64,000 bases of DNA from Candidatus Aenigmatarchaeota archaeon (GTDB taxonomy: Archaea > Aenigmatarchaeota > Aenigmatarchaeia > CG10238-14 > SCSR01). Positions within the stretch are counted from its first letter, which is position 1, and each line of letters starts with the position of its first letter. The notes beneath the pieces were generated by a model. That model was not told the DNA's origin and made no database searches. It saw only the letters and a list, made by a program, of their open reading frames with translations. The DNA is taken from contig JACPJT010000007.1 of assembly GCA_016187415.1 (NCBI GenBank), positions 1,289 to 65,288 of the forward strand. Reading direction: 5' to 3'. Positions 1,743 through 42,557 of this stretch are shown one piece after another. The translations under genes and the position numbers were made by a program.

Positions 1743-1831
1743 GGGCTGGTAGGTCAGTCCGGTAGACCGCGAGCATGGCATAGATACATCACCGAAGCTT
1801 GAAGCCGAGGGTTCAAATCCCTCCCAGTCCA
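1743..1831 (+). tRNA. tRNA-Ala (anticodon GGC) with ~15-nt intron at canonical 37/38 position
   Basis: Acceptor GGGCTGG/CCAGTCC with G3:U70 Ala identity pair. D-arm GGTC..GACC, anticodon stem CGAGC/GCTTG, T-arm GAGGG-TTCAAAT-CCCTC, discriminator A. The 22-nt region between anticodon stem halves implies an intron. Confidence 0.7.
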
Positions 1832-3163: not shown

Positions 3164-4258
3164 CTATTCAACATAGTCAACGCCAAGAATCTTCTCAATA
3201 TCCTTCTTGCGCTGCTTATCAAATGGTCTATCAGAATTAAATATCTGTGGTGACTTGACTCCGGTTATGACCAGCATCGTTTTTATTGTGTCGCCCAGCG
3301 ACTTGTCGACTTGGACGCCCCAAATAATCTTCGCCTCTGCCGACAGTTTTGATGATATGGTATCCGCAATTTGTTGCGCATCCCTTATTGTTATTTCAGG
3401 TCCACCTATGACATTAATCAGTGCGCCGTTAGCACCGTTGATATCTATGGTTAACAATGGGTTGTTTAATGCTCTTTCAACAGATTCGAACGCTTTATTT
3501 TCAGAATTGCTTTCGCCCATACCAATCATTGCCAGGCCGCCTTCTTTCATAATTGTCCTTACATCCGCGAAATCAAGATTGACAAGACCTGGTTTCGTAA
3601 CAAGTTCTGTAAGACCCTTGACAGCGTTGACCAAGATATCGTCTGCGACTTTGAATGCTGTTGTGATACTCACATCCGGGACTATCTCCAAAAGCCTTTC
3701 GTTTGGAATGACTATCAGCGTGTCCACGGCCGTTTCTAAGCTTCTCAAGCCTTCTTTGGCGTTGTTCATTCGGACACGACCTTCCATTGAGAATGGAAGT
3801 GTGACAACTGCTATAGTCAACGCGCCCATTTTCTTTGCAATATCAGCAACGATAGGCGCACTGCCAGTTCCTGTTCCACCGCCAAGGCCCGCTGTGATGA
3901 ATACCATGTCTGCACCCTGCAAAAGTTTCTTGATTTCCTCTTTGCTCTCTTTTGCAGCTTCCATTCCGATACTGGGATTGGCGCCGGCTCCAAGACCTTG
4001 TGTCAGTTCTTTTCCTATAACAAGCTTCTTATCAGCTTCTGTATACAGCAAATCCATTGCGTCTGTGTTGAGTGCTATCGTCTCCGCGCCCGTGATGCCG
4101 ACCTGCACCAATCTCGTTACAGTGTTGCCTCCTCCTCCGCCACAGCCGACAACCTTGATCTGAGTTTTTCTGGCTTCCATCAAAGATCTTATTTCGTTGT
4201 CGAATTCGCTGGATTTTTCTATTCTTATTGTCCTTTCAGACAGTTGCTTTATTCCCAT
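3164..4258 (-). CDS. ftsZ: cell division GTPase FtsZ
   Basis: 364 aa, tubulin signature GGGTGTGSAPIVA and the GCGGGGGN nucleotide-binding loop. Confidence 0.95.
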   Translation of the reverse strand: MGIKQLSERTIRIEKSSEFDNEIRSLMEARKTQIKVVGCGGGGGNTVTRLVQVGITGAETIALNTDAMDLLYTEADKKLVIGKELTQGLGAGANPSIGMEAAKESKEEIKKLLQGADMVFITAGLGGGTGTGSAPIVADIAKKMGALTIAVVTLPFSMEGRVRMNNAKEGLRSLETAVDTLIVIPNERLLEIVPDVSITTAFKVADDILVNAVKGLTELVTKPGLVNLDFADVRTIMKEGGLAMIGMGESNSENKAFESVERALNNPLLTIDINGANGALINVIGGPEITIRDAQQIADTISSKLSAEAKIIWGVQVDKSLGDTIKTMLVITGVKSPQIFNSDRPFDKQRKKDIEKILGVDYVE

Positions 4259-5041: not shown

Positions 5042-5398
5042 GTGATTATGGAACTTATTAAAAAGAAAGCAGACTGGAAAGACAATCTCAACGACGAAGA
5101 CAAACCAGTAATGAACCAAATTATTGATTCTACAAAAAAACACAGGTATGCATACACATCAGCAGATGACCCGAAGATTGCACAATTGTGGACTGCGATA
5201 ATCGAATTGAAGAAAGAAATGAACAAGACTCAAGATATGTTAGGGAAACTGAAAGAACCTTGGAGCGCTATCGTTTCTGTCGGCGAGGAAGAGAAAAGAA
5301 GGACCGTTGAAAAATTGGTGCAGGAGATTATCAAGCCTGTTGACGAAACAACACAGGAAGCCACGCAGAAATTGGTTGAAAGCTTGATGAAATTCTAA
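5042..5398 (+). CDS. hypothetical charged/coiled-coil protein (118 aa)
   Basis: ORF only. Confidence 0.4.
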   Translation: MIMELIKKKADWKDNLNDEDKPVMNQIIDSTKKHRYAYTSADDPKIAQLWTAIIELKKEMNKTQDMLGKLKEPWSAIVSVGEEEKRRTVEKLVQEIIKPVDETTQEATQKLVESLMKF

Positions 5399-5409
5399 TT
5401 AAATTTAAT

Positions 5410-6072
5410 TCATATACGACTAATCTTAACAACCTCAAAGGCTTCTACATATTTCCCAACACCAGTAGCGCCGCCACGATACCTGTTCAGCCCTTCAACC
5501 CATTCGTCATATCTTATGTCTCTAATTTGTGATTTATGTTGCCTCAATGCTTCGAGTTTCTTATCCATAAACTGAGTTATATCTTCACTATAATGGACAG
5601 CAGGCAACGGCGCCCATATTTCATATGCTAATACTGTATCAGTCCTCCATGGTTTTCCTTTTGTTTCCTGAAACCATGGTCCGGCTGCCCGAAAAACAGC
5701 TTGCGTTACTAATTGATTTGTAATTCTATGATCTGCATGCGTATCATTACTGGAGTGAGTATAGATGGTGTTGGGTTGTTTTTGTCGAATCAAATTAATT
5801 AATCTTACTAGATTATCTTGGCTATACTGCAAATAACCGTCTGGATTCCGCAAAAATACCAAATCTTTTATCTTTAAGACGTCAGATGCTTTTCTTGCTT
5901 CTTCTTCACGTATTTTTGCCAATTTTTCTTTGGAATAAGTTAAGCTCCCTGCGCCCCCCGATGTCATATAAACAACAGTTATTGAACTGCCATTTGCATA
6001 TTTTGCTAAACTACCGCCGCATCCGATTACGTCATCGTCAGGATGCGCAGCAAATACCATTATGTTTCTCAT
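5410..6072 (-). CDS. PIG-L/LmbE family N-acetylglucosaminyl deacetylase
   Basis: 220 aa, N-terminal AHPDDDVIGCGG motif and HxDH pattern typical of LmbE-like zinc deacetylases. Confidence 0.8.
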   Translation of the reverse strand: MRNIMVFAAHPDDDVIGCGGSLAKYANGSSITVVYMTSGGAGSLTYSKEKLAKIREEEARKASDVLKIKDLVFLRNPDGYLQYSQDNLVRLINLIRQKQPNTIYTHSSNDTHADHRITNQLVTQAVFRAAGPWFQETKGKPWRTDTVLAYEIWAPLPAVHYSEDITQFMDKKLEALRQHKSQIRDIRYDEWVEGLNRYRGGATGVGKYVEAFEVVKISRI

Positions 6073-6136: not shown

Positions 6137-6261
6137 TGCAGGGGGAGAGATTTGAACTCTCGAAGGGACTAACCCAGCGGATTTCTTATATCATCTTTTG
6201 TTCAAAACTTAAGCTGCATAACTTAAGTCCGCCGCAATTGGCCAGACTATGCGACCCCTGC
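6137..6261 (-). tRNA. tRNA-Leu (anticodon UAA), type II with long variable arm and ~39-nt intron
   Basis: Minus-strand acceptor GCAGGGG/CCCCTGC plus discriminator A, T-arm GAGAG-TTCAAAT-CTCTC, anticodon stem GCGGA/TCCGC, loop C-U-UAA-G then intron, and a 15-nt variable arm. Confidence 0.65.
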
Positions 6262-6288
6262 GTAATTCATTTATGACAGTTCTGTATT

Positions 6289-6849
6289 TTAACCTTTCGT
6301 AACAAAACTCAAAACAGGCAGCAATATATAAAAGACCGCCATGAATGTCCTGATCAGAATCTTCCTTGCATTGACTGGCATCCTGCTCGGCTTGTACAAT
6401 ATCCACGGCACATTCAGCCTGTCAGACATGAACAGCGCGTAAAGAAGAAGGAGCGTTATTGAATACATGACTTCATTTAGCATAGGAACGATGGAAAACA
6501 GGAGCCACACGCCGACTACCGACATTAGCGTATGATGGATCCACACCAAGAATAAGTTCCAGAACTTGAACAGGAATTTCTTATTTTCAACCGAATACGC
6601 CAGATACAAGACCATCAGACCCAGACTGGAAACAATAAACAGGCCTCCTGCGACAAGCTTCAGAATATTCGAACCGAAACCGAGAATGGAAAATAAGGAA
6701 GCCAGCCCGCTTAACAGCACGGCGTGCCCGCTAAACGCATACGCCCACCATACTTTCGATTTGACATATTTCTTATACGGAACGAATGCGAAAAGCAGAG
6801 AAATTAATGAAAATATTAGGACTGCCACGTCCACATTGCCAAGTATCAT
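6289..6849 (-). CDS. hypothetical polytopic membrane protein (186 aa, ~6 TM)
   Basis: Hydrophobic helices throughout; no motif. Confidence 0.5.
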   Translation of the reverse strand: MILGNVDVAVLIFSLISLLFAFVPYKKYVKSKVWWAYAFSGHAVLLSGLASLFSILGFGSNILKLVAGGLFIVSSLGLMVLYLAYSVENKKFLFKFWNLFLVWIHHTLMSVVGVWLLFSIVPMLNEVMYSITLLLLYALFMSDRLNVPWILYKPSRMPVNARKILIRTFMAVFYILLPVLSFVTKG

Positions 6850-6867
6850 ATAAGATTATTTGATTTC

Positions 6868-7562
6868 CTATTTTAATTTCTTTAAAGCCCTGTCGAATTC
6901 CTTTACTTTTTCCTCTAGAATGGTTGCTGAATCCAGAATCACGTCTTCGGTGGCCAGACCTGAAGCCGTTTCGACATTGAAAATGTAACTGTCGTCTATG
7001 GCCTTGAACTCCGAACTTTCTTCATTTAGAAATTTGCACATCAAACAATCCATGGGCTGCGACTTGACGCTCTTTACATCCCTGACATTGTAAAAATGGT
7101 TGCCGCATAATTTTGCTTCGCTGATCCTTGATTTGTGCTCAAACTGGTTTATGTAGCCCACTACAGCGCCCTGCCATTTTGAATGTTCCTTGCCCAACCC
7201 CAACACGGCTATGGCCTCGAATTCCAATTCCTGAGCATCTCGCCGGAATAAACCATAGCTGGTCCCTTCTTTTTCAAAATTAATTTGACTTGGCACAGGC
7301 TGCATCCCTTGCCTTCGCACTTGCAGTCTTTCGTCATGTTGTAAGCCCTTTTGTCAAACTTCAGCGGCACATGACCCATCCTGTTGGCAAGTATCTCATC
7401 GTTCAAAACAGAACCGTTCTTTACATAATCAACCCACTCTATCGCCATTGTTGGTATCTCTCCCATCATTATCCTTCTGAGCTCGTTGGCGAACTGGGGC
7501 TTTATGCCCTCGACTAGAAATTTAACGCTGGAATCCGTTTTGCTGAGTATCTGAATTTTCAT
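6868..7562 (-). CDS. rpoD: DNA-directed RNA polymerase subunit D (Rpo3/Rpb3 homolog) interrupted by a frameshift between N- and C-terminal halves
   Basis: ORF 7209..7562 is the Rpb3 N-terminal dimerisation domain plus 4-Cys cluster (DCKCEGKGCSLCQ). ORF 6868..7320 in another frame carries the conserved C-terminal GLGKEHSKW motif. The two frames overlap over 7209-7320 with an A5 run at 7270-7274. Confidence 0.8.
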
Positions 7563-7682
7563 TTAACCACAATTCACAGTAGACAATTTTGTTTTTGAAC
7601 CAATTTAAACTTTTGCTATTTTACGGCTTTGCACCTTAAATGGATTCTGCGCCCTAAAATCGTTTTCTGGGATTGACATCTA

Positions 7683-8417
7683 TCATCTTAAATTCACAAG
7701 CTGGCTAGCGAACGGCCAAGCAAGTATTTCACGGGATCTGACTACAAAATCAACAAGCATGTGCTGACTTAATTGCCTGTACAAATTTCTAACCTGTTTT
7801 TCTTTCAGACCTTCGTTCTTCTCCATTCTTTCGACTTCGCTCCTCACCCATTTTGGATCAGGATTTTCTGGTCTGGTGAATCTGTATATCGTGTTCACTG
7901 CTTTGGCATCGGAATTTATCATGCCGTTTGCTTGGACATACAATTGCGTCTGCCACAATGTTTCTCCACGTCTGGCGACTTCAGGTTGCACAAAATAATC
8001 GATTCCATGTATTTTTAGGCGACTTTTGCCTTCAACGACGCTACCCAGCAACGAACCCCAATAAGGGTTCGAATCCCAGGGCCCGGCGACCGAAAGCATG
8101 ACCATCATCCTATAGGCCTTGAAGTTCCACCTGAGAGCCCTCAAACCTTCCGCGTCTTCTGGATTAGTATTTCTATTAACGTATGTATTGGGATCCACGT
8201 TCAATAATTGCCGCATCTGTGGAGTTGTAGTGAATCCCCTTGCCACCCAGTCTATGTCTCTCAACGGACCTTTTACTCCCTTCAAATCAATTTGTGGATT
8301 GTCTGCTGTTCCTGCAACCCTGTAATCGACAATATATAATGGGTCGGGCGATGGGTTGTCTAATATGGGAAGCTTCAGTCCTGTTATTCTTGGCGAGTAT
8401 ACTTGCAACGATGCCAT
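7683..8417 (-). CDS. hypothetical protein (244 aa), GC-elevated, inserted inside the conserved r-protein/rpoD operon
   Basis: ORF with no recognisable motif. Composition differs from neighbours. Confidence 0.45.
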   Translation of the reverse strand: MASLQVYSPRITGLKLPILDNPSPDPLYIVDYRVAGTADNPQIDLKGVKGPLRDIDWVARGFTTTPQMRQLLNVDPNTYVNRNTNPEDAEGLRALRWNFKAYRMMVMLSVAGPWDSNPYWGSLLGSVVEGKSRLKIHGIDYFVQPEVARRGETLWQTQLYVQANGMINSDAKAVNTIYRFTRPENPDPKWVRSEVERMEKNEGLKEKQVRNLYRQLSQHMLVDFVVRSREILAWPFASQLVNLR

Positions 8418-8515
8418 AATTAATTAGTAAATAGTAAAGGATTTAAGTTTTGATGACTTTGCAAAGTTCATCCAATACTTGCAGATAAAAGTTATTTTAG
8501 GTGCAAGGCTCTGTT

Positions 8516-8725
8516 TTACTTGAGCAACCTGAGGAAACCGACCACATCTTTCGTTTTACCTATGTTTTTAATTTGGATGAGATAGGATGAAAGGATTATC
8601 AAAGATAATAGTGCCGTAGCCAACGAAAACGCTCTGATCGAGCTGTTTCCGGTAAGTTCGTATGCTACCGCTGAAACGAAACTTATCAATAACCCCATCT
8701 TACCAATATTCTTGTACATTTTCAC
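8516..8725 (-). CDS. hypothetical small membrane protein (69 aa, 2 TM)
   Basis: Two hydrophobic helices. Confidence 0.35.
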   Translation of the reverse strand: MKMYKNIGKMGLLISFVSAVAYELTGNSSIRAFSLATALLSLIILSSYLIQIKNIGKTKDVVGFLRLLK

Positions 8726-8845
8726 CGATCACACCAGCTTAGAACTAGGACTAAGGAGGATATAAAGGTTGCTGTTTTCAAAAAAATGACAATAATTTTA
8801 AAGGCGAAATAACTCTGATTTTTAGTAAAAAAGACTCTAAATGGC

Positions 8846-9265
8846 TTATACACGCCTTCCCAATCTTCCGCCTTTCTTTCTCAACTCGCCGTGGGTTGTA
8901 GGAGTGCAGTCTTCGATTGTACCTATTCTCAAGCCTGCACGGGCCAAACTTCTGATTGCAGGTTGTGCACCCATGCCAGGCGACTTGCTGTATTGGGATC
9001 CCCGAGCCCTTACCCTGATATGTATGCCTGTTACGCCCTTTGCCACAGCCGTTTCCGCGGCTTTTCTTGCCGCCAACATAGCTGGAAACGGCATCCCCTG
9101 TTCCCTGTCCTTGTCGGTCATCATTCCACCGCTGCATCTGGCGAATGTCTCGCTTCCAGTCATATCTGTAATATGGATTATTGTGTTGTTGGCAGTACTA
9201 TAGATGTGAGCCACTCCCCACACTTCTTCCTTCCTAGTTTGCTGTTGTTGGTTCTGTACTGACAT
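8846..9265 (-). CDS. rps11: ribosomal protein S11
   Basis: 139 aa, S11 pattern [19 protein letters not shown]...[28 protein letters not shown]. Confidence 0.9.
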
Positions 9266-9749
9266 TTACATCACTTGCGTTGTTTTTCTTTACCGGGGTT
9301 AACTTTACAACTATCTTGTCCTCTTCGTCAACGGGGACCATATAACTAGGGATTTTTACCGACCTGTTGCCTATTATAACATGCCCGTGAGCGATGAATT
9401 GCCTTGACTGGTGTGGCGTATTGACAAAGCCTTTCTTTAGCAGCACGGTCTGCAATCTTCTATCAAGGAAATTTTCTATCGAAAGCCCTAAAATCGTATC
9501 TACAGTCGCGTCCTTTGTGATTAACCCCAATTTCATTAACCTGTCTTTCAGCACTTTTTCTTTTGCGGCATCGTATTTTGCGATAAGTTCCCTTGCCAAT
9601 CTTCTGTATTTTCTAAGCATTGCCTGCATCTTCCAGATTTCCCTTTTGGACTTTAACCCAAAGTTCTTTACGATAGTCTTTTCGTATTCCAGCCTTTGTT
9701 TGTCCCATGGCCGCGATGGCGTTTGATATCGTTTTCTTTGTCTTTTCAT
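9234..9749 (-). CDS. rps4: ribosomal protein S4
   Basis: 171 aa, S4 N-terminal domain plus S4 RNA-binding fold ([44 protein letters not shown]). Overlaps the rps11 start by 32 nt. Confidence 0.9.
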
Positions 9750-9755
9750 AAATCA

Positions 9756-10421
9756 TCACTTCTTTGCAGGCTTGGCTGCGGCTGGAGCTGCTGTGGTTTT
9801 GTCTGCTTCTGGTTTTGCTATTGTTGGAGATGCTGCTCCCGCTGCGGCTGGAGCTGCACCCGGCTTTTGCAAAACAGCCTTCTTTATCACGCCGACTGTT
9901 CCATCGCCATGTCTGAAAGAGCTTCTTGTTCTCTGCCCTCTTACCGGCTGCCCCAGCATGTGTCTCCATCCACGGTAGGTTTTAAGATCAATGTATCTCA
10001 TAATGTCAAATTTTTTTGCAGTATCCAAATCCGAGCTTGTTAAATGCATATCTGCGCCTGTCGCTGGATCTTTTCTTCGATTTAATATAAATGCTGGCAA
10101 GTTGAATTTTGCCGGGTTCTTAACAGCGCCTTCCAAGTTAGAGATTCCCTCTTCGTTCAACGAACCTAATTTTACATTGGGGTTTATGTTTGCGACACGG
10201 CAGATTGCAAAACTGGTCACGACGCCTATGCCTTTGATTTTTCTCAATGCTCGTACGACTGGTTTTTCGCCATCCAAATCCGTACCGGCAACACGAATAA
10301 TAAGCCTTGGTATGTCGCGCCTTATTTCCGGCTTTTTCTTTTCTTCTTTTTTAGGCTCTTCCTTTTCCTTTCCTTTTCCCTTTGGTTTCTCTTCTTCCTT
10401 GACTCTTTTATTCGAACCCAT
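9756..10421 (-). CDS. rps13: ribosomal protein S13 with unusual N-terminal KE-rich (~35 aa) and C-terminal Ala/Pro-rich (~45 aa) extensions
   Basis: Core IRVAGTDLDGEKPVVRALRKIKGIG...RYIDLKTYRGWRHMLGQPVRGQRT is S13. The flanks are low complexity. Confidence 0.9.
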   Translation of the reverse strand: MGSNKRVKEEEKPKGKGKEKEEPKKEEKKKPEIRRDIPRLIIRVAGTDLDGEKPVVRALRKIKGIGVVTSFAICRVANINPNVKLGSLNEEGISNLEGAVKNPAKFNLPAFILNRRKDPATGADMHLTSSDLDTAKKFDIMRYIDLKTYRGWRHMLGQPVRGQRTRSSFRHGDGTVGVIKKAVLQKPGAAPAAAGAASPTIAKPEADKTTAAPAAAKPAKK

Positions 10422-10603
10422 TCTATCACAGTGATTTAATTCTATATGAATTTAAGCCTTATAAAAATATTGAAAAATAAAAAATGTGCCGACTTCTCCC
10501 ATTGGCCCTTCGTGAACGCCCTTACTTTAGCCCGCGTTAACATTTAAATATATTAAAATCGTAGTTCGTTTGTCCCGTGGACTACTTCGGTAGGAGGGTG
10601 TGC

Positions 10604-11221
10604 GTGTTAGAAGAAATTGAAAAGGCAATAAAAGATTTGAAAGTCAATGGTAAAAGAGGGTTTACGCAGACTGTTGACTTGATGGTTTCTCTCAAAGGAA
10701 TTGATTTGAAAAAGCCTGAAAATAAATTCTCGGACGATGTTTCTTTGCCATATGGCCGTGGAAAGGACGCCAACATTGTTGTTTTTTCTGATAATTTAAA
10801 AGACCTGGATTGCGATATCCTAACATCGCAAGACATTCAAAGATTCACGACCGATAAAAGGGAGGCTAGGAAATTGGCCGTTCAAACTGATTTCTTCTTT
10901 TCGGAAGCGCCGCTTATGCCTTCAATCGGGAAAAGTCTGGGTCAGATATTGGCCCCGCGAGGGAAGATGCCTAAAGTGCTTACCGGCGACGTGAAAAAAC
11001 TTATTGAAACATATAAGAAGAATGTTAGGATTGTCGTCAAAAATGCGCCTGTGATACAATGTCTTGTAGGAAAAGAGGACATGGAAGACAGGAAACTCGC
11101 GGAGAATGTTGAAGCTGTATTGAAATTTTTGGAAATGAAACTTTCACGAGGAAGACAGAATATCGGAAAGGTTATGGTTAAGTTGACTATGGGCAAGCCT
11201 GTAAAGATAGAGGTGAAATAA
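10604..11221 (+). CDS. rpl1: ribosomal protein L1 (probable GTG start at 10604 after a GGAGG Shine-Dalgarno; ORF track begins at 10577)
   Basis: L1 pattern LEEIEKAIKDLK...GFTQTVDLMVSLKGIDLKKPE...PRGKMP. SD GGAGG at 10593-10597. Confidence 0.9.
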   Translation: MLEEIEKAIKDLKVNGKRGFTQTVDLMVSLKGIDLKKPENKFSDDVSLPYGRGKDANIVVFSDNLKDLDCDILTSQDIQRFTTDKREARKLAVQTDFFFSEAPLMPSIGKSLGQILAPRGKMPKVLTGDVKKLIETYKKNVRIVVKNAPVIQCLVGKEDMEDRKLAENVEAVLKFLEMKLSRGRQNIGKVMVKLTMGKPVKIEVK

Positions 11222-11962
11222 ATGCCGCTGGAAGAGAAAAAAACTCAATTGGAAGATTTGAAAAAATTATTCAATCGCTACAAAGTCATTTGCCTAGTTG
11301 ACATGCTTAAGATGCCGACGAAACAAATGCAGATAATCAAAAAATCGCTAGGCGGTAAGGTATTGGTGAAATTCAGCAAGAAATCCCTAGTCGAATTCGC
11401 AATGAAAGAAACCGGGAAGGATCTGATAGGGAATTTGCCTAAGCAGCCCGCACTCATATTTTCGGATTTGGATCCTTTCACACTTTTCAAAGAAATCGAT
11501 AACCTCAGATTCAAAACGTATGCAAAAGAAGGCTATGTGGCCACTGAAAATATAGAAGTAAAGCCTGGACCGACTGAACTTTTGCCCGGGCCCGCTATCA
11601 GCGAATTACAAAAGGTGGGATTGACTGCAGGCGTGGAAGGCGGAAAAATAGCCATTAAAAAACCGTCAACGGTCTTGAAGAAAGGTCAAATTGTAACAAA
11701 GGAACTTTCAGGTGTTTTGAGAAAACTGAAACTTCAAGTTGCAGAAATAACATTGAATGTTGACGCTATTTTTGACGGGATTCTTTACAAAAAAGACACG
11801 CTTGAATTGGTTAAGCAGTACCCAAGCAAGATGAAAGAATATTTTAAACAAGCTTTAAATCTTTCTCTTTCTATTAATTATCCTACAAAGGAAAACATTA
11901 AATATTTGTTAGTTAAAGCATATCAAAGAGTAAAGGCGTTGGAGAAAAAGATTGGTGAATAA
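11222..11962 (+). CDS. rpl10: ribosomal protein L10 (acidic stalk protein P0)
   Basis: 246 aa, P0 N-terminal domain pattern. Position between L1 and L12. Confidence 0.85.
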   Translation: MPLEEKKTQLEDLKKLFNRYKVICLVDMLKMPTKQMQIIKKSLGGKVLVKFSKKSLVEFAMKETGKDLIGNLPKQPALIFSDLDPFTLFKEIDNLRFKTYAKEGYVATENIEVKPGPTELLPGPAISELQKVGLTAGVEGGKIAIKKPSTVLKKGQIVTKELSGVLRKLKLQVAEITLNVDAIFDGILYKKDTLELVKQYPSKMKEYFKQALNLSLSINYPTKENIKYLLVKAYQRVKALEKKIGE

Positions 11963-11964
11963 AA

Positions 11965-12258
11965 ATGCAAGAAGTATACGCTGCACTGATGCTGCATGAG
12001 AGTGGTCAGCAGATTAGTGAAGACAGCGTCAAGAAAGTTTTGTCTAGCGTGGGCGCTAGTGTGGAAGAGGCGAAAATAAAGGCGCTGGTTTCTGCATTGC
12101 AGGGCGTTGATATTGATAATGCTTTGAAGGAAGCTGCTTCTTTTGCTGCACAGCCAGCCGCCGCGGCCCCGACTGAAAAGAAGGAAGAAAAGAAAGAAGA
12201 AGACGAAGGTAAAAAGGCTGAGGAAGCTGCCGCCGGATTGAGTGCATTGTTCGGATAA
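11965..12258 (+). CDS. rpl12: ribosomal stalk protein L12 (P1)
   Basis: 97 aa, N-term MQEVYAALMLHESGQ, Ala-rich hinge, acidic KKEE tail ending GLSALFG. Confidence 0.9.
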   Translation: MQEVYAALMLHESGQQISEDSVKKVLSSVGASVEEAKIKALVSALQGVDIDNALKEAASFAAQPAAAAPTEKKEEKKEEDEGKKAEEAAAGLSALFG

Positions 12259-12261
12259 AAT

Positions 12262-12714
12262 CTACTTTTTCAGAAAAGTTTTAATTGATTTCCTAAGTTT
12301 TTTCCTGAGTTCATCTATATTTTCATAAGTTATTATTTCACATTGCGTAACTTCCTTGAATCCTTGGTAGATAAGTCCTGGAAGGGAGTCCATATCGAAA
12401 TTTTTATTTAAGACGATAATTACCGGCTTCTTGAATGCTTCGGCCATGCCCAATGTTATATTGGGTCCAATACCCTCGTCTGGATGGACTGCCAAAAGTA
12501 TGTCGGCTGTTTGGAATTCCTTGTTCCGCTTGGCGTGGACCGTAATCGGGTTGTATGTTACTTTACCCCAGCGCAGAAGGTCTCTGTAAGTCATGTACGT
12601 GTCAATCTTGAATTCTTTCAGAATTAGATCGATTGAATTTACTAATTTGATTAATTCTTCGGAATTTTCGTTTTTGAAGCTTTGTGCAAGAGGCGCTGAG
12701 ATATAAACCTTCAT
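12262..12714 (-). CDS. nucleoside 2-deoxyribosyltransferase-like (NDT/SLOG-fold) protein, paralog A
   Basis: 150 aa, N-term MKVYISAP. C-terminal GPNITLGMAEAFKKPVIIV resembles the NDT catalytic Glu region. A paralog with the same N-terminus lies at 16730..17188. Confidence 0.55.
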   Translation of the reverse strand: MKVYISAPLAQSFKNENSEELIKLVNSIDLILKEFKIDTYMTYRDLLRWGKVTYNPITVHAKRNKEFQTADILLAVHPDEGIGPNITLGMAEAFKKPVIIVLNKNFDMDSLPGLIYQGFKEVTQCEIITYENIDELRKKLRKSIKTFLKK

Positions 12715-12755
12715 AGTCTTGAATTATAATTTAATAGATTAAAGCAGTTGATAAG

Positions 12756-13853
12756 ATGAACGTTCTTGTAGATGTGACAATCGGACCGGCGATAGAATTT
12801 ATCAGGAAAATTAAAAATGGGAAAGTCGCGATTGTTCATGGGCACGACAATGACAGCATCTGTTCAGCTGCGATAATTTACAGATTGCTGAAGAAAATTC
12901 ATAAAATAGAGCCGAAGCTGGTTGCTTCCGAATTTAATTATGCCATATCGAAAAATGTTCTCAATGAGGTCAAAAAACTTAAAGCTGAATATGTGATAGC
13001 AGTCGATTTGGCCGAAATAAACGTGGATCTTTTAACCGAACTTAGAAATATCTCGCAAGTAATGCTGATAGACCACCATACGCCGCGCGGTTATGTCAAA
13101 ATAACTTACGTGAACCCTAGAAACTACGACAAGTCGATTTACTTGCCAGCAACTTATCTTTGTTACAAAATTTATGAAAAACTGGCAGATGCGAAAGAAA
13201 TCCTATGGATCGCTGGCATTGGGACACTGTCTGACATGGGATTGAAAAATTGTAAGGACTTGTTTGAGGATATAAAATATCATCATAAAGAATTGATTGG
13301 CAATAACGAAAACATAGATGAAATCTTATTTGATAAATCTTTGCTTGGCAAGCTCGCTAAAATTTTTGATAGCGCGAGAGTTGTAAATGGGATTGATGGT
13401 GCCATCGCTGCTTTGGATGTTTTGCTGAAAACTGGGAATTACCAGAATGTCTTAAATGGGGAAGTTTCCGGTAGTAAGAAGCTCTTGGACTGGTATGGGC
13501 TGTCGGAAAAGGAATTCAATCGGCTGCTTAAAGATTTTTCAGTTAAGAAAAAAACGATCAAGAAATTTGTTTTGTATGAAGTGAAATCAAAATATAACAT
13601 GAAATCCGCTTTAGCTACATATTTGTCCAAGAAAATGAGTAGCGAAGTTCTTGTGATATACCAAAAATCTGGCGAGTATACTGATGTTAGTTTCAGGAGG
13701 GGTCCTGTTTCTATCATGGACCTGAATCAACTTGCAATCAATTCAATAATCGGAATGCCAGATTCGAATGGCGGTGGACACATACAAGCCGCCGCATGCA
13801 GATTCCCAACCAGATATTTTAAAAAATTCATGGGAAATTTGAAGTCGATATAA
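12756..13853 (+). CDS. DHH/DHHA1 family phosphoesterase (RecJ-like core or nanoRNase)
   Basis: 365 aa, DHH motifs (IVHGHDNDSICSAA, LIDHHTP) and C-terminal DHHA1 GGGH motif. Confidence 0.8.
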   Translation: MNVLVDVTIGPAIEFIRKIKNGKVAIVHGHDNDSICSAAIIYRLLKKIHKIEPKLVASEFNYAISKNVLNEVKKLKAEYVIAVDLAEINVDLLTELRNISQVMLIDHHTPRGYVKITYVNPRNYDKSIYLPATYLCYKIYEKLADAKEILWIAGIGTLSDMGLKNCKDLFEDIKYHHKELIGNNENIDEILFDKSLLGKLAKIFDSARVVNGIDGAIAALDVLLKTGNYQNVLNGEVSGSKKLLDWYGLSEKEFNRLLKDFSVKKKTIKKFVLYEVKSKYNMKSALATYLSKKMSSEVLVIYQKSGEYTDVSFRRGPVSIMDLNQLAINSIIGMPDSNGGGHIQAAACRFPTRYFKKFMGNLKSI

Positions 13854-13862
13854 TGGTGTTAT

Positions 13863-14720
13863 TTAGTAGTGTTTAATAATAGACATTACTTCATTTTTTG
13901 AGATTTTTCGACTTCTTGCACCGTAAAAAGTTGTTGCTAATGCGCCCATTCCATTAGCAAAGGCACAAACTTCTGGAAGCTCCCATCCTCTAAAATAACC
14001 GTAAATGAAACCAGAAGAAAATGCATCACCTGCACCAACAGTATCTATAGAATTTACTTTTAATCCGTGATACCTTTCATGGTAGTTTCCTTTATAAACT
14101 TCACAACCACCCGCACCATGTGTTATAACAACTAGAGTTTTTCCATTTTCAATTACATCAGTTATGTAATTTTTTTCGACAGTTGCTTCTTCTTTATTTG
14201 AAAATAAAATTTTAATTCTTCTTTTTGAAAGTAAAGGTAGATTTGTGTGTGGCTCTGATAAACCCTGCAAACTTGTAAAGATATATAAACCATTATCGTC
14301 TGCGACTGCAGAAGATTCTTCAAAGAGTGAATGTGTAAGATTTACGTATAAGCTTTTGGATAAGTTCAGGTACTCCACATCTTTGCTTGTTAATTTTCTT
14401 ACTCCAACACCACTGGTTCTTCCTATCCTACGATAAGATTGTGGAGATGTTTGCATTGTCCAAGTTCGAGTATCTCCTTGTAATTTTCTAATTCTTTCTG
14501 TATCAACTCCTTCTTTCCGCAACTCTTCTAGTATAATATGTCCATAATCGTCATCGCCAACAAAACCAATTAGACATGTTTTTAAGCCGAGTCTAGACAA
14601 GTGAACAACAACATTTGCACCACTTCCGCCACCACTTTCTAAAACTGTATTCTCTGGAGTATGAAAAATGTCGATTGCTGGATTTTCAATAGCTATAACA
14701 TCAAAATCTCTGGATGTCAT
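13863..14720 (-). CDS. PfkB-family carbohydrate/nucleoside kinase (ribokinase-like)
   Basis: 285 aa, N-terminal GG motif (ESGGGSGANV) and C-terminal DTVGAGDAF anion-hole motif. Confidence 0.85.
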   Translation of the reverse strand: MTSRDFDVIAIENPAIDIFHTPENTVLESGGGSGANVVVHLSRLGLKTCLIGFVGDDDYGHIILEELRKEGVDTERIRKLQGDTRTWTMQTSPQSYRRIGRTSGVGVRKLTSKDVEYLNLSKSLYVNLTHSLFEESSAVADDNGLYIFTSLQGLSEPHTNLPLLSKRRIKILFSNKEEATVEKNYITDVIENGKTLVVITHGAGGCEVYKGNYHERYHGLKVNSIDTVGAGDAFSSGFIYGYFRGWELPEVCAFANGMGALATTFYGARSRKISKNEVMSIIKHY

Positions 14721-14772
14721 AATTTAGAATTAAAATGCTGTTTTAAAAGTTCGAGAATGTTTAAATCAATGC

Positions 14773-14787
14773 GGTTAATGATTAACC
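14773..14787. promoter_or_regulatory. Perfect palindrome GGTTAAT-G-ATTAACC about 55 bp upstream of the PfkB kinase start; candidate operator
   Basis: Seen directly in sequence (gcGGTTAATgATTAACCccg). Confidence 0.3.
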
Positions 14788-14917
14788 CCGTTGGTTATTT
14801 AAGGAAAAATAGCGGGATTTCCAGCATTAATAAGCTAGTTTAAAGTTGGATTGCCTTAAATTAGGCTTAGATTACCTTCTTTATAGAAGAAGTGGGAAAT
14901 GACCCCCTGCGAAAAGA

Positions 14918-15142
14918 GTGTATAGTTACTTGACCAAATCTATTCTGGTGCGAGACATGAGATGCGTTAGGTGCAGTTCATTTAGGATGATCAAATTCGT
15001 AGACGGGTTTGGTCAAAAAAGAATCTTCTGCAGAGGCTGTTCGGGAAGCTTTCTAGATGGTCCGGTCTTGAGCCAAGAACAAACTAGACTACAGCAATTC
15101 AACACCTATTACAATAGGCGGGCTGTAATAAGACACTTTTAG
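14918..15142 (+). CDS. possible small CxxC..CxxC zinc-ribbon protein (74 aa)
   Basis: CVRC-x17-CRGC spacing. Lies in an otherwise gene-free 600-bp gap. Weak. Confidence 0.25.
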   Translation: MYSYLTKSILVRDMRCVRCSSFRMIKFVDGFGQKRIFCRGCSGSFLDGPVLSQEQTRLQQFNTYYNRRAVIRHF

Positions 15143-15338
15143 GAGGTTAAAACATGGAGGAAATAGCTACGCTCACAAAGACGTTATTGATTGACAGAGG
15201 AAAACGGAAAATCCGTTTCAGCGTCATAAACAAAAATAATATGATGGGATGCATCATCCCATATGACAGATGATTATAAAACTTGCGTTATGAGGATCGA
15301 TGCTCAATTTTATTTTTCTCCTCCTTTTTTATTTTTCT

Positions 15339-16679
15339 TTAATATATAATTCCTTTACTTGAAGCCACGCCTTCTGGTTGGGAACGATCTATTCTAGTTC
15401 CCATTCTAAGTGCCCCACCAAGAACGTAAAATTGTGCTAATTCGGGATTGTCAAAGTGGTGTTTCCCATATGGTATTATACCATTGGTAGGCTCCAGATA
15501 CTCTGAATTTCCTCTTAATATTTCATGCAAAATATCATATGCCGTATTATCAGCAAACGGCATTTGTGTAATATCGGAGGGACCCACATGTAAATAAGCT
15601 TCTAACCCAGCTTTACTAAATATGGGCTCCAAATGATGTAAAGTTGTGCCGTATTTTTTTCTATACTCTTTTGTATGATTGCCGATATAGGAATATCTGT
15701 TACTAATACCGACAATAGCCAATGCCAACATTTTATCGTCTATGTAAAAGGCATTACCAAATCTAACAAGTCTCTGCGGAGACGACTTAACACTTGTAAG
15801 AAAAGCTTGAGCTTCAGCTTCTCCTTCGTCCTCAACTAAATGATGCTTTCCTATGCTACTACCTCTAATTTTATAATCAAACAAAGCACGCCTTGCCATT
15901 ATTCTTTTACCTTCTGAAAAGAGGGCTACATAGCCAGAATCTATAGGTGAAATTAGCTGTATATCAGAATCACCTGTACCGTCAAGATTTAGCTCGACTT
16001 CTATAGCGGCTTCACCGTGTCCAAGCTTTACATTTGCTGTTCTGCGGGCTATCGAATCTCCGCCCAAACCAATTGCTGGACGTGCCTTATACTGACGTAA
16101 CGCATTGCCTTTAGCTTTGTATAGTGCTTCCAATAGATGATGTAAGTCTATCAAACTACCGCCATATGGTACGGATCCCGGAGCTCTAAAGCGTGAAAAG
16201 TGTGCTGATAATGCGTATATATCGGATTGTAAAGTATGCGCCCATTCATCCAGGTTTTCTTTAATCCATCCTTTGGCTCTGTGGGCTAATTGTAAATCAC
16301 GTTCGTCAAATAGATTTTCTGTATCAAGATACAGACGTACTCTCGGGTTTTGTGATTGTTTCAATGCTACCATAGCTACAACCTCACCAAAAGCTATAGC
16401 TGCATATCCCTTACCAAAGATGGGTTCGTTTCTTCTATCTATCTGCCTTTTGAATTCCTGGCTTAATTCTCTGCCGCCCACTCCCCATGCATCCCGCTCA
16501 TCGAAATTATTTAATTCGACAGTTCCGGAAAGACCACCATGCGTCATCGGTTGTTCTATACCAGCATGACCAAGATATAATTTACTATGTTCGCTTTCTC
16601 TTACAGGTTGGGAGTATTCTACGTATGGCCTAGATTTACCATCGAGTTCAGGATCTCTTATAATAATTTCTGTTGGCAT
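15339..16679 (-). CDS. hypothetical protein (446 aa), GC-elevated, distal gene of a 5-gene operon
   Basis: Long ORF with several His-rich candidate metal/ligand motifs (HAGIEQPMTHGG, LIDLHHLL, GKHHL), but no family recognised. Confidence 0.5.
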   Translation of the reverse strand: MPTEIIIRDPELDGKSRPYVEYSQPVRESEHSKLYLGHAGIEQPMTHGGLSGTVELNNFDERDAWGVGGRELSQEFKRQIDRRNEPIFGKGYAAIAFGEVVAMVALKQSQNPRVRLYLDTENLFDERDLQLAHRAKGWIKENLDEWAHTLQSDIYALSAHFSRFRAPGSVPYGGSLIDLHHLLEALYKAKGNALRQYKARPAIGLGGDSIARRTANVKLGHGEAAIEVELNLDGTGDSDIQLISPIDSGYVALFSEGKRIMARRALFDYKIRGSSIGKHHLVEDEGEAEAQAFLTSVKSSPQRLVRFGNAFYIDDKMLALAIVGISNRYSYIGNHTKEYRKKYGTTLHHLEPIFSKAGLEAYLHVGPSDITQMPFADNTAYDILHEILRGNSEYLEPTNGIIPYGKHHFDNPELAQFYVLGGALRMGTRIDRSQPEGVASSKGIIY

Positions 16680-16729
16680 AAAATTCCTTTACTTGAGTTT
16701 TGAAAATAAGAGTTCCTACATTTAAAAAG

Positions 16730-17188
16730 CTATTGTTTAATGCTAGCAAGTTCTTCCCTTAGTTTTGTCCTCAAATCCATTATGTCTCTAAATCTGATTA
16801 TTTTGGAATCTGTTACACCGGTTAATCCTGAATGCATGATACTTGTCCGCTGATTTTCTTTCAATAAAATCAAAACCTTCTTTTTGAAGGCTGAAGCCCA
16901 GCCCAATTCGATGTTTACACCGACACTTTCTTCTGGGTAGGCAATTACCAAATCGGAATTATTCAGTTCTTCGAAAGACTTTCTTCCAACATCTTCTTCT
17001 GAAAGGTTTGATTTACCCCATTCGTGCAAATCTCTATGCGGTAAAAATGTCTGGAAACCTAGAGATTTCACGGCAGACTCTATAGAATCTAAAAAGTTAA
17101 TATAGGAAGCGTCCTTTATCTCGCCATGGATTGAATTGCTTTGTTGAACTGATTTATTGGTATATGGTGCGGATATGTAGACTTTCAT
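16730..17188 (-). CDS. nucleoside 2-deoxyribosyltransferase-like (NDT/SLOG-fold) protein, paralog B
   Basis: 152 aa, same MKVYISAP N-terminus as 12262..12714. C-term VGVNIELGWASAFKKKVLIL matches NDT-like catalytic region. Confidence 0.55.
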   Translation of the reverse strand: MKVYISAPYTNKSVQQSNSIHGEIKDASYINFLDSIESAVKSLGFQTFLPHRDLHEWGKSNLSEEDVGRKSFEELNNSDLVIAYPEESVGVNIELGWASAFKKKVLILLKENQRTSIMHSGLTGVTDSKIIRFRDIMDLRTKLREELASIKQ

Positions 17189-17944
17189 TTATACACCAAT
17201 TAACAAATATTCTAAACTTTTGCTCCAATCTCTTTCAATTCTAGATCTGAATTTAGCAATTGGTGATTCTGGTTTTAAAGATAGTGTTGGGATTTTTTTC
17301 AAGGATTCTGCAACTTCATGTAAATCATCTTCGTTTGGTACAAACAGTTTTGTATAAAATCTTACTGTTGGTCTTCCGTTATCAGACGGAGATGTGGATC
17401 GTGGTGGAGCATAAATTGTAAAAAATGTTGCGCCAAATTCCTTTTCTCTTCTACTAATATCTGGTACCTTATGAGCAAGTTCCTTAAGTTGTTGTGCAGT
17501 TTCTTTTACTGACTTGATTCCTAATAACATTCTGGCAGCTTCATGAGGAGTTTGTATCATAGATACAAGTTTTTCACTATCATCTGAAACTTGTATATTC
17601 GCGTCGACCCAGTAATAGGCCGATGGCACTAATTGTCTCGCTGTAGGATCGTATGACTTGAACCCCGATTTTAGATAGCCTATAACTGGTTCCGGTACTT
17701 TTTGATGTAATTCTTTTAAACGACCTTTTATGGTGTAATTTTTTGGTATTCTATAAATTATTCTACCATTCGCAAGTTCAACACTTGTATCAAATAGTAG
17801 AACTGGATTACCGCCGTTAGATTCTATCTCCAGTTCTTTCTGCACATTATACTGTGCCGATTCCAAATCTGTAGTTTTATCATCAAAAGTATACCTTACC
17901 AAAAATAAAGGAGGTAAATATGGACTAACTTTATCTTCTGTCAC
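17189..17944 (-). CDS. hypothetical protein (251 aa) in 5-gene operon
   Basis: ORF abutting the NDT-like gene with no gap and overlapping the upstream ORF by 14 nt. Confidence 0.45.
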   Translation of the reverse strand: MTEDKVSPYLPPLFLVRYTFDDKTTDLESAQYNVQKELEIESNGGNPVLLFDTSVELANGRIIYRIPKNYTIKGRLKELHQKVPEPVIGYLKSGFKSYDPTARQLVPSAYYWVDANIQVSDDSEKLVSMIQTPHEAARMLLGIKSVKETAQQLKELAHKVPDISRREKEFGATFFTIYAPPRSTSPSDNGRPTVRFYTKLFVPNEDDLHEVAESLKKIPTLSLKPESPIAKFRSRIERDWSKSLEYLLIGV

Positions 17945-18731
17945 CTAAAACACCAACCCTAACCAATGGAGTAGACCATTCATCTGGATGTAGGAAACTA
18001 CCCAAGTCCAATTCTGTTATACGGTTTAAATTACCCATCAAAACATTTTCTAAATGTTCATCCGATAGGTAGAGTCCTGCCTTTCTTAAATAGGTTTCAT
18101 ATTGTCGCAGTCTATCTGGTATAATTCGGCCATTTTTAATGAAGTTCTCAACTTCTTCAGTTGTCCGATTGTTCTGTTGCATTCTTGCAGCAACCTCTAT
18201 TGGTATGGAATTTAACATAACGAATCTTTTTGGGCCCGTATACACCCTACCTTTTGTTTTATAGTCCGAGTGTATTGGAACTGTAGAAACCCCTATTTCA
18301 TCCCATGTCACTATACTCGCAAGTGTAGGTATATCTAAATAATCTGCAAGTCTTAAGAAATCTATCCATTGACCACTATTACTTGTACTAGTAGGTATGA
18401 AAACGCCGTCGACAAGTGTATATTCTTTGGCAGATGTATCAAAAATTATTCCTGAGGTCGCCCCCCTGACCCTAAGTTCATTTGGTCTTTTAAGTATGGG
18501 TCTGTATCCCCCTTCTTCTACTTCATTATCGTCTTGAGGTACAAATACAGGAACCAATCCGTCCAAGTACTCATTAAAAATTTCAGCTACACCACCATGC
18601 CAATCACGATGAGCGCCATGCCCAACAAGATAGACTGCTTTACGCCCTGTTGGTAAGAGTGTATATGCTCTATTAGCAGCAGCTGTTATTTCATATACCG
18701 GTGGTAAATCTACTTTTCTTTCTATTGTCAT
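17931..18731 (-). CDS. hypothetical protein (266 aa) in 5-gene operon
   Basis: ORF with candidate metal-binding stretch LVGHGAHRDWHGG. No family assignment. Confidence 0.45.
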   Translation of the reverse strand: MTIERKVDLPPVYEITAAANRAYTLLPTGRKAVYLVGHGAHRDWHGGVAEIFNEYLDGLVPVFVPQDDNEVEEGGYRPILKRPNELRVRGATSGIIFDTSAKEYTLVDGVFIPTSTSNSGQWIDFLRLADYLDIPTLASIVTWDEIGVSTVPIHSDYKTKGRVYTGPKRFVMLNSIPIEVAARMQQNNRTTEEVENFIKNGRIIPDRLRQYETYLRKAGLYLSDEHLENVLMGNLNRITELDLGSFLHPDEWSTPLVRVGVLGDRR

Positions 18732-18738
18732 AATTACA

Positions 18739-19674: not shown

Positions 19675-19865
19675 AGCTTCTCTCCTTTTATTAAATCTTT
19701 AATAATAAACCATTAATTACTATGAAAAATTCTATACTTGTATAAACTTTCTTATAATAACATATATATAAAGCTTGTGGAATTTGGGTGTTGCAGCTGA
19801 ATTCTATAAATTCTGTTATAGAAGTGGTTTATAAGCATCCATTCGAATGTCTGTTCAGAGAGAAA

Positions 19866-20042
19866 ATGTACATAAAAAAATTATCAATTCCGTCAGTGCG
19901 GTCATATGAAGTAGAACAGGCAGGACCGAGTGTTGCATTCGAATGCCCCACATGCACAAGAGAAGTAAGCCTGAATGAAATTATAGAGGAGAAAGGAACG
20001 ATAAGATGCGTCAAGTGTAGTCCTTTTGGCCGATCAACCTAG
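19866..20042 (+). CDS. small zinc-ribbon protein, paralog 1 (ORF track start 19788; likely start MYIKK at 19866)
   Basis: C-terminal CPTCTREVSLNEIIEEKGTIRCVKC matches the 20839..20997 paralog. Confidence 0.5.
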   Translation: MYIKKLSIPSVRSYEVEQAGPSVAFECPTCTREVSLNEIIEEKGTIRCVKCSPFGRST

Positions 20043-20092
20043 CTGGAGAACAAACCCCTTGGAGGATTCCACAAAACAAATGTTCTCCAGCT
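20041..20092. terminator. 12-bp perfect inverted repeat (AGCTGGAGAACA ... TGTTCTCCAGCT) with 28-nt loop immediately after the zinc-ribbon ORF; terminator or regulatory hairpin
   Basis: Seen directly in sequence. Confidence 0.35.
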
Positions 20093-20128
20093 TCGCCCCT
20101 TCTTTAAACCAATGTCGCTTGTGATAAC

Positions 20129-20775: not shown

Positions 20776-20838
20776 ATGTAATAGATTTGGTCAGAAAGGT
20801 ATTTATTTGTTATAATCATGTCTTGAATTGGTGATTAA

Positions 20839-21730: not shown

Positions 21731-21733
21731 AAA

Positions 21734-27496: not shown

Positions 27497-29713
27497 TTAA
27501 TGCTTAATAGTTTTCAACGTAGATTGTGACTCGCTTGCATTTTTAACGTCTTCACCCAGCTGTTTTTTAATTTCATACGCTGCTTTAATTCCAATAATCC
27601 CTATTAGCATTTCAGTCGGTGTGCTTCTTAATTTATCGAGTGTATCAAACCCAGCATTAAATAACCTTCGTGACCTTACTCTGCCTATCCCCTTCAACTT
27701 TACTAGCGGTACTAATTCCTCTTTGATGCCGTACTTCAATCTTATACGCAACTTTTTTAGAGGATTCAACAGTCCCTTTTCTCCGTTTAAAACCGCCAAT
27801 TCGTATAAGCCATATACTAGCCAATCGAGTATCCTAAGTTTACTATATAATTCACCAGGCGCGATTTTGAATTTTGTTAGCAGTTGGTCTTCTGAAGACT
27901 CGCTTATCCACCCATCGAACATCAGTGCTGTTTTGACTGATTTAAGAAATTCGTCATATTCGAGATCATACTCTTCTGGTATTTCTGCCAATAGTTGGTT
28001 ACCATGTCTTATAATTAGTTCTTCCGTATCGGAAATCTCATCTGACCTTACTGATACAAGCGGTCTTATTTCTAGTGAGTTTGAAGCAAGTTGCAGAAAA
28101 CTGAACTCTGTCAAATGTCTTTCTTTACATAATTTCAATCCTTCGAGAAAATAATGCGCAGTTAGTGGGTCGATATACAAATCTGAGATTCTTTTTCCGA
28201 TGGGTGTGGTTGTTATAACATTTTTTTGAATTCTAATCATAGACCATTCTTCAAGCTGCTTCAATATGTCATATAATTTTTCTTTTAGGATATCTATGTC
28301 ATTGTAATGAAACGCGTAAAATGTTCTGTTGAAAAACCCGATAATCGATTCCCTAGAATTACAGAACCCGCTCGAAATCAAAGCTAGTATATGCGCCCTA
28401 AGAATCGGCTCTAGCGCGAGTTTGGATGTTATATCCTCTGGCTGACCAAGAATAAAATGTTGTATCATAGACCTGGCGTCGCCTTCTGATTTTGCCAATA
28501 ATATCGATTCACCGAAAGTATCGTAAGTTGGTCTTCCAGCTCTGCCAACAAACTGCTTGTAATCCATTACAGGTATGTAAGTTGAACCGATTCCATCGTA
28601 ATATCGTTTCGCATCCCGTATAATAACTCTGAACGCTGGCAGATTAACTCCCATTGCCAATGTTGGCGTGGCGACAATTGCTTTTATCAAGCCATTTCTG
28701 AAATTGCTTTCAATCAGTCTTTTTTGTTCGCCTAATAAACCGGCGTGATGAAAGGCTGTGCCGAACTTTACACATTGTGCTAGTTTTCTGCACTGTTGTG
28801 TGGGTATTTCAATAACGCTCTCGATATCTTTGCTCAATTTGGTTAATTTCAACCGCGTATCACTATCCAATTTCTGGCTGGTTGTTTTACATAATTTTTC
28901 CGCAAGACTTTCAGCATTTCTCCTGGTGGAAGTGAAAACTAGCGCTTGTTTTTTTAGGTTCAACGTATTGTCGATGATTGAATTTTCTATTTCTAAAGTG
29001 TCGTTCAGTTCGTATCCTTCTCTGTCTTCAAAGTGTATTTTAGAATCGAATGCCACACCTTCATACAATTTTACAGGCCTGAAGTCGCTCGTGATTGGTG
29101 TTGCATTTAACCATTTTGATAATTCCTCGGCGTTGTTGATGGTGGCCGACAGCCCTAGAATCTGGGCGCTTGGAATAATAGACATCAACTTCGTTAACAT
29201 GATTTCCAATGTTGGACCACGCGAAGAATCGTTCATTGTGTGAATTTCATCAACTATTATAAGATCTACGTTTTGCACCCATCCAACATTATGCCTTAAC
29301 AGACTATCGAATTTTTCTGTAGTTAAACATACAACATCGTAATCCGCTAGCCACGAATCAGCAGAATCGAAATCACCGACACTTATTGCAACTTTAAAAT
29401 CACCGTCGAGAAATTTCTTGAAGTACTCATATTTTTCATTCGCCAGTGCTACCAACGGCGCAATATACACTACCTTAACACCCCTCTTATCTAAGAGTTT
29501 ATGCAGCATGCAAATTGCCGCGATTAATGTTTTCCCACTGGCTGTTGGCAAGGTCCCACTGGCTGTTGGCAAGGACAACACAAGATTCCTTTTGAATAGC
29601 CCTTCCTTAATCACATCTGCCTGAGGTTTGTATAACTCTTTTATGTTATCCTTTTCCAGCCTTTGGACGTATTTCTCAGGTATTCCATAACCGACTAACT
29701 CTCCGACTTTCAT
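27497..29713 (-). CDS. hel308: Hel308/Hjm (Ski2-like) DNA helicase with an in-frame 7-aa tandem duplication at the Walker A motif
   Basis: 738 aa. Walker A LPTASGKT duplicated as LPTASGTLPTASGKT, DEIH box (IIVDEIHTM), SAT motif (LSATI), motif VI (QFVGRAGR), winged-helix, ratchet and C-terminal HhH domain (LKGIGRVRSRRL). Confidence 0.9.
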   Translation of the reverse strand: MKVGELVGYGIPEKYVQRLEKDNIKELYKPQADVIKEGLFKRNLVLSLPTASGTLPTASGKTLIAAICMLHKLLDKRGVKVVYIAPLVALANEKYEYFKKFLDGDFKVAISVGDFDSADSWLADYDVVCLTTEKFDSLLRHNVGWVQNVDLIIVDEIHTMNDSSRGPTLEIMLTKLMSIIPSAQILGLSATINNAEELSKWLNATPITSDFRPVKLYEGVAFDSKIHFEDREGYELNDTLEIENSIIDNTLNLKKQALVFTSTRRNAESLAEKLCKTTSQKLDSDTRLKLTKLSKDIESVIEIPTQQCRKLAQCVKFGTAFHHAGLLGEQKRLIESNFRNGLIKAIVATPTLAMGVNLPAFRVIIRDAKRYYDGIGSTYIPVMDYKQFVGRAGRPTYDTFGESILLAKSEGDARSMIQHFILGQPEDITSKLALEPILRAHILALISSGFCNSRESIIGFFNRTFYAFHYNDIDILKEKLYDILKQLEEWSMIRIQKNVITTTPIGKRISDLYIDPLTAHYFLEGLKLCKERHLTEFSFLQLASNSLEIRPLVSVRSDEISDTEELIIRHGNQLLAEIPEEYDLEYDEFLKSVKTALMFDGWISESSEDQLLTKFKIAPGELYSKLRILDWLVYGLYELAVLNGEKGLLNPLKKLRIRLKYGIKEELVPLVKLKGIGRVRSRRLFNAGFDTLDKLRSTPTEMLIGIIGIKAAYEIKKQLGEDVKNASESQSTLKTIKH

Positions 29714-42553: not shown

Positions 42554-42557
42554 GTCA

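Follow-up and report, generated by a model that had tools for sequence, protein, structure and literature searches.

Why should the gene for an essential subunit of RNA polymerase lie in two pieces and in two reading frames? The question is raised by the rpoD (Rpo3) locus of a metagenome-assembled Aenigmarchaeota (DPANN) genome, within the stretch of 64,000 nt that has been analysed here as a whole and is referred to as the window. An earlier note on this DNA had described the N- and C-terminal halves of the subunit as two overlapping ORFs. It had proposed either an assembly or sequencing indel, with a homopolymer of five adenines (A5) in the overlap as its site, or a programmed frameshift, on the premise that an essential single-copy polymerase subunit should not be a pseudogene. 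The premise is borne out, as the same strain possesses an intact gene. The identity of the two pieces, the exact position and nature of the break, the state of the gene in other assemblies of the same strain, and the explanations that these data leave standing are considered in turn below.

Two pieces of one rpoD gene

The two ORFs, the cysteine cluster, the GLGKEHSKW motif, the overlap (112 nt, 7209-7320) and the A5 run of the earlier note are all present (Table 1), and the RpoD/Rpo3 identity of both ORFs is confirmed by matches to NF001988, PF01193 and PF01000. The NCBIfam model NF001988, an equivalog model of RpoD with a curated cutoff of 153 bits, is matched by the N-terminal ORF over profile positions 2-111 (135.3 bits) and by the C-terminal ORF over positions 131-263 (63 bits). 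Both scores are below the cutoff, and neither ORF alone gives a full-length family match. The Rpb3/Rpb11 dimerisation domain is recovered from N- and C-terminal segments: PF01193 is matched over profile positions 1-31 in the N-terminal ORF (33.5 bits, above the 24-bit cutoff) and over 34-73 in the C-terminal ORF (19.3 bits, on its own below that cutoff). The insert domain PF01000 is incomplete, with 18.5 bits against a cutoff of 33.9 for the N-terminal ORF and positions 6-61 of 119 covered.

Table 1. Coordinates of the rpoD pieces, of the break and of the second lesion (window positions).
Feature	Position	Strand	Remarks
rpoD N-terminal ORF, 117 aa	7562..7209	-	carries DCKCEGKGCSLCQ
rpoD C-terminal ORF, 150 aa, another frame	7320..6868	-	carries GLGKEHSKW
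rpoD 5' part	7240..7562	-	nt 1-323 of the intact 759-nt gene (codons 1-107 plus 2 nt)
rpoD 3' part	6868..7239	-	nt 388-759 of the intact gene, DAQELEFEAIAVLGLGKEHSKW... to stop
Deletion junction	7239..7240	-	64 nt (TTTGAAATCAAAGGCCAAGGACGTGGTTCCCGTTTTCGACAACATACCGATAGTGGAATTATTT) absent relative to same-strain assemblies; blunt join (blastn, junction analysis)
A5 run	7270..7274	-	not the lesion; in-frame coding (LKKKG); identical in the intact allele
Premature TAG ending the 5' ORF	7209..7211	-	after 8 out-of-frame codons, LRNWNSRP
Exact 21-nt tandem duplication (TCCCACTGGCTGTTGGCAAGG x2)	29533..29574		TRF; in helicase ORF 27497..29713

The architecture is that of archaeal Rpo3 (in eukaryotes Rpb3/AC40, in bacteria the alpha N-terminal domain), in which the dimerisation domain is split around an insert domain. 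Like these proteins, the window gene has the Cys cluster and the GxGKEHxKW motif, and it is found in the S13-S4-S11-rpoD operon order expected of RpoD/Rpo3, an order also observed in the related loci L001-L005 and in most of the other related loci that reach far enough upstream. It is closest, at 65-69% identity, to RpoD proteins of 252 aa from Aenigmarchaeota. Unlike them, it lacks 64 nt, corresponding to profile positions 112-130 of NF001988, and its remainder is out of frame.

The break is a deletion at 7239/7240

Alignment to RpoD orthologues, which the earlier note had recommended, places the break between 7239 and 7240 and not at the A5 run, and protein alignment, tblastn and DNA alignment agree on this position. 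Homology in frame A, that of the 5' part, continues for about 30 nt beyond the A5 run (...LKKKGPAMVYSG; KKGPAMVYSG), to about position 7240, and homology in frame B begins at 7239 (DAQELEFEAIAVLGLGKEH...). Between the two, about 20 codons common to every orthologue (DLKS.AKDV.PVFD..PIVELF) are absent, and a gap of 64 columns is found at the matching place in the orthologue DNA alignment. Pyrococcus furiosus Rpo3 (8cro_D) aligns to both window halves but leaves its residues 108-128 unmatched. Together with the loss of about 20 codons, this identifies the lesion as a deletion of about 64 nt rather than a one-base homopolymer shift. At the junction, ...TTATTCCGGCGA is joined directly to GATGCTCAGGAA....

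What the 5' part encodes is one half, the first, of the dimerisation domain, together with the CxCx4CxxC cluster and the beginning of the insert domain, as far as ...PAMVYSG; the 3' part reads in the -1 frame with respect to it. The deletion takes from the Rpo3 insert domain 21 codons that are strongly conserved, and it displaces the frame by one base, hence the two overlapping ORFs and the premature TAG. Both halves are otherwise free of lesions and are 73-77% identical to orthologues (tblastn).

The intact gene in same-strain assemblies

Per-run Logan contigs of the same strain were found through exact-protein look-ups of the neighbours S11 and ORF244. Two of them span the break: L028, from run SRR12113384, and L031, from run SRR12113383. 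The 5' side of 7239/7240 is 100% identical over 3334 nt in L028 and 2022 nt in L031. The former contig is 100.000% identical to the window over 10573..7240 and 99.9% over 7239..6161, and L031 likewise shows 99.9% on the 3' side, with one SNP. Within the gene, the 5' part is 100% identical to L028 3012-3334 and to L031, and the 3' part runs colinear with both contigs (L028 3399-3770), with 0 mismatches. Both contigs hold the 64 extra nt between 7240 and 7239 and encode an uninterrupted 252-aa RpoD whose product carries PF01000. Independently assembled sequence of this strain thus lacks the lesion, as expected of an artefact.

The intact L028 protein passes NF001988 with 245.1 bits (cutoff 153) over profile positions 2-263 and aligns in a single stretch to residues 5-259 of P. 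furiosus Rpo3 (8cro_D). Its restored segment, DLKSKAKDVVPVFDNIPIVELF, aligns to a 22-residue Pyrococcus stretch and is among the best conserved parts of the protein. The 117-aa truncated product has no record in any assembly of the collection searched. Same-species sequence was not found among the contigs of GTDB genomes and JGI metagenomes, where the best matches are 65-75% identical. The real gene of this organism is a normal, intact rpoD encoding 252 aa, in a conserved S13-S4-S11-rpoD operon.

These data bear directly on the proposal that programmed -1 ribosomal frameshifting, or a 1-nt sequencing indel at the A5 run, joins the ORFs into a functional protein. The proposal draws on the extent of the overlap, on the sequence G AAA AAG within it, and on the -1 shift that passage from frame A to frame B does require. 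Archaeal programmed -1 frameshifting, for which Sulfolobus fucA1 may serve as an example, likewise involves two ORFs that overlap in the 0 and -1 frames and an A-rich run where they do so. The resemblance does not extend further. As frame A is homologous 30 nt beyond the A5 run, the switch has to fall within 7241..7234 (gagatgct), where no slippery heptamer (X XXY YYZ) is present; the arrangement is shared by no relative, a frame break in rpoD being absent from every related locus that spans the region and from the same-strain contigs; and coding sequence, 21 codons of it, is missing rather than recoded. Folding of the intact alleles as DNA predicts no significant structure around the site. 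The A5 run itself is unchanged in the intact allele, L028 3295-3334 reading TTTTGAAAAAGAAGGG as does the window. Nor does the one-base repair envisaged by the earlier note restore the native protein: a 1-nt fix yields 231 aa without the conserved segment, versus 252 aa for native RpoD, and any such repair still lacks NF001988 profile positions 112-130. The intact same-strain allele refutes both forms of the proposal, to which a negligible probability is assigned. What survives of the indel hypothesis is its spirit, that of an artefact; its detail does not, the lesion being a blunt 64-nt deletion at 7239/7240 and not an indel in the A5 run.

Split genes are a known trait of DPANN archaea, and a genuine split as in Nanoarchaeum, with N- and C-terminal halves made as two polypeptides that reassemble, would have at its disposal an in-frame ATG (7305) upstream of the C-terminal homology. 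The halves do not sum to a whole, however: 21 conserved residues within one β-rich domain are absent, and 19-21 conserved positions are found in neither part nor elsewhere in the window, where tblastn searches for the missing peptide, with an orthologue or the 27-aa middle segment as query, returned only noise. The C-terminal piece would moreover bear 22 out-of-frame residues, and neither the same strain nor any relative has the split. A split gene is thus very unlikely.

A second lesion in the window

Sixteen Logan contigs from 6 runs cover 28,219 nt of the window (6147-22992, 26164-32638 and 42400-47297). They differ from it by one SNP (6637), the 64-nt deletion and a 21-nt tandem duplication, and by nothing else; across about 24 kb of other window sequence, 0 SNPs are observed. 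These contigs are of the window's own strain, with virtually no point divergence and two structural oddities private to the window.

The exact 21-nt duplication adds 7 aa in frame to a helicase. In three same-strain Logan contigs (L036, L039 and L040) the repeat is present once, and the remaining sequence is 100% identical; only L036 spans the whole helicase gene, which there encodes 731 aa versus 738 aa in the window. The duplication is probably a second error at an assembly join, easily missed as it is in frame, and the fact that it is private to this assembly supports the mis-join explanation.

The window as a whole holds about 80 tightly packed ORFs and zero Ns. A generally error-ridden or decaying genome was rejected, as an inspection of adjacent ORF pairs by Pfam revealed no other broken gene. 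Ribosomal protein L11 (2238-2540, minus strand) is only 100 aa long and matches only the C-terminal RNA-binding domain PF00298. In the relatives L001-L004, too, residue 1 is already part of the match and no sequence of an N-terminal domain precedes it, which makes the short L11 a trait of the lineage and not an error.

The same pair of lesion types in a sister MAG

The related locus L001 belongs to a deposited MAG from Northern California groundwater (GCA_016181005.1, JACPAE010000001.1, NC_groundwater_223_Ag_S-0.2um_43_16, project PRJNA640378). Its rpoD shows a blunt 69-nt deletion between 6305 and 6306 relative to Logan contigs of its own strain (L033, L034 and L035), and its S11 gene is frameshifted by an exact 23-nt tandem duplication at 5371-5416 that is absent from the same three contigs. 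Its RpoD (P0030, 229 aa) is annotated as 'hypothetical protein HYT70_01110'. A lineage-specific short form of RpoD was rejected as an explanation, the protein of the same strain in Logan (P0029) being identical over the 229 aligned residues and having 23 aa in addition. The two MAGs thus share a pair of lesion types, a blunt loss of 64-69 nt and an exact tandem duplication of 21-23 nt.

In project PRJNA640378, assembly was performed with MEGAHIT, and contigs were then joined with the scaffolding function of IDBA-UD (PMC7906910). Runs SRR12113383 and SRR12113420 carry both the window's strain and that of L001, an association from which the window presumably stems from the same project.

The two losses overlap within rpoD, spanning gene nt 324-387 in the window and 306-374 in L001, in MAGs of two species. 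Two other assemblies have contigs that end in rpoD, at gene nt 306 (L009) and 318 (L022). In a MAG of the same project, rpoD is split between the end of L009 and the start of L010 (JACRAE01 contigs 1 and 7), the ends of which overlap by about 140 nt; the end of L009 is within 1 nt of the left boundary of the L001 deletion. A crude estimate gives 3-15% for chance alone to produce two MAGs with overlapping rpoD losses. A search revealed neither a boundary motif shared by the two deletions nor any secondary structure. The edge of a conserved block is an unconvincing cause of the shared break site: a peak of nucleotide conservation at rpoD nt 286-315 is only modest, and the longest exact matches between species are located elsewhere. 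Plausibly, conserved ribosomal-protein and RNA polymerase operons fragment in the low-coverage graphs of communities rich in related species and so go through more scaffold joins.

A real deletion allele, carried by a subpopulation or by some of the chromosome copies of a polyploid cell and followed by the assembler, would inactivate rpoD by the 64-nt loss. The overlapping deletion in the MAG of a second species fits such an allele, the contig ends at gene nt 306 and 318 hint at heterogeneity, and the private SNP nearby (6637) means that the window is not literally the Logan consensus. An allele of this kind is nonetheless improbable. RpoD/Rpo3 is an essential assembly-platform subunit, intact in every relative; the segment lost belongs to the most conserved parts of the protein; the second rpoD copy that the earlier note had proposed to look for is not found in the window by tblastn; and the rest of the compared sequence is free of SNPs. 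The blunt junction lacks microhomology, unlike deletions due to slippage or mediated by microhomology, and both the window assembly and the sister MAG carry exact tandem duplications that are absent from read-level assemblies, one of which breaks the essential S11. Less likely still are deletions that are both real and recurrent, with a fraction of the genomes in at least two co-occurring Aenigmarchaeota species carrying a 64-69-nt loss within gene nt 306-387. If this is true, polyploid or host-dependent cells could be tolerating defective copies, and such heterogeneity would also explain the contig breaks at this spot of rpoD elsewhere.

A probable error at a sequence join

The split rpoD is very probably a local assembly error, in which 64 nt were lost at a sequence join. 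Neither the window junction nor that of L001 slides by even 1 nt, microhomology being absent from both; around the deletion site of the window, no repeat of at least 8 nt is found; and when the surroundings of the site in the intact alleles are folded as DNA, the result does not improve on shuffled sequence (z-scores -0.2 to +0.3), with no indication of a hairpin. Blunt junctions of this kind are unlike the usual products of slippage or microhomology-mediated repair. Hairpin-mediated polymerase jumping was rejected on the basis of the folds, and microhomology or replication slippage on the basis of the blunt junctions and of the lack of repeats at the window site.

A de Bruijn assembler alone should not yield a repeat-free deletion of 64 nt, from which we infer that the joining or scaffolding step must be the source. 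A scaffold join that sets two contigs end to end and omits the bases between them would leave a blunt deletion. The converse error, in which overlapping contig ends are both kept, would leave an exact tandem duplication, as may have happened in the 21-nt case. As in MAG mis-assemblies at contig or scaffold joins, the window lesions are blunt, private to the MAG and absent from read-level assemblies; both types of error, loss and exact duplication, are present; and MEGAHIT contigs were scaffolded with IDBA-UD in the project to which L001, and presumably the window, belongs. What departs from a model of random mis-assembly is that rpoD was hit in overlapping parts in two MAGs, at what are presumed to be joins.

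Gene content around rpoD

Between a small conserved ORF (8516..8725) and rpoD, the window has an ORF of 244 aa (7683-8417, minus strand), for which no significant Pfam or NCBIfam match was found, one Pfam hit being below threshold. It is absent at this position in the relatives L002-L004 and present in the same-strain Logan contigs. ARAGORN predicts a 96-nt tRNA-Cys at 8426-8521 (plus strand), for which Rfam support is absent even at E<=1; the call is likely a false positive, and the idea of a tRNA-Cys beside ORF244 as an integration site was rejected on the same ground. Conversely, Rfam detects an 89-nt tRNA at 1743-1831 (plus strand), probably intron-containing, that ARAGORN missed.

On the other side of rpoD, a gene for a PIG-L family deacetylase (5410-6072, minus strand) is extra to the synteny of the relatives, which is rpoD, membrane protein, orf118, FKBP and FtsZ. 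No exact product of this gene is on record, which suggests strain-variable content around it; L028 and L031 stop at 6161 and 6147, just before the gene. The FtsZ proteins also differ. That of the window (3164-4258) is intein-free and 364 aa long, whereas that of L001 (9201-11402) has 733 aa and an intein with a LAGLIDADG endonuclease. A free-standing LAGLIDADG-like ORF is located just downstream of rpoD in L001 (6931-7719).

Implications

The split of rpoD is almost certainly not a real feature: an ordinary archaeal RpoD/Rpo3 gene has been affected by a known class of local MAG mis-assembly. Its biological import is nil, as the organism has an ordinary intact RpoD. The import is one of quality control, the MAG sequence misreporting an essential gene as broken. 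The class of error recurs in the sister MAG, a deposited genome with damage to both S11 and RpoD, the latter annotated as a hypothetical protein. In such DPANN MAGs, short blunt deletions and exact duplications can mimic pseudogenisation, gene splitting or recoding, readings that are tempting in this group because of its genome reduction.
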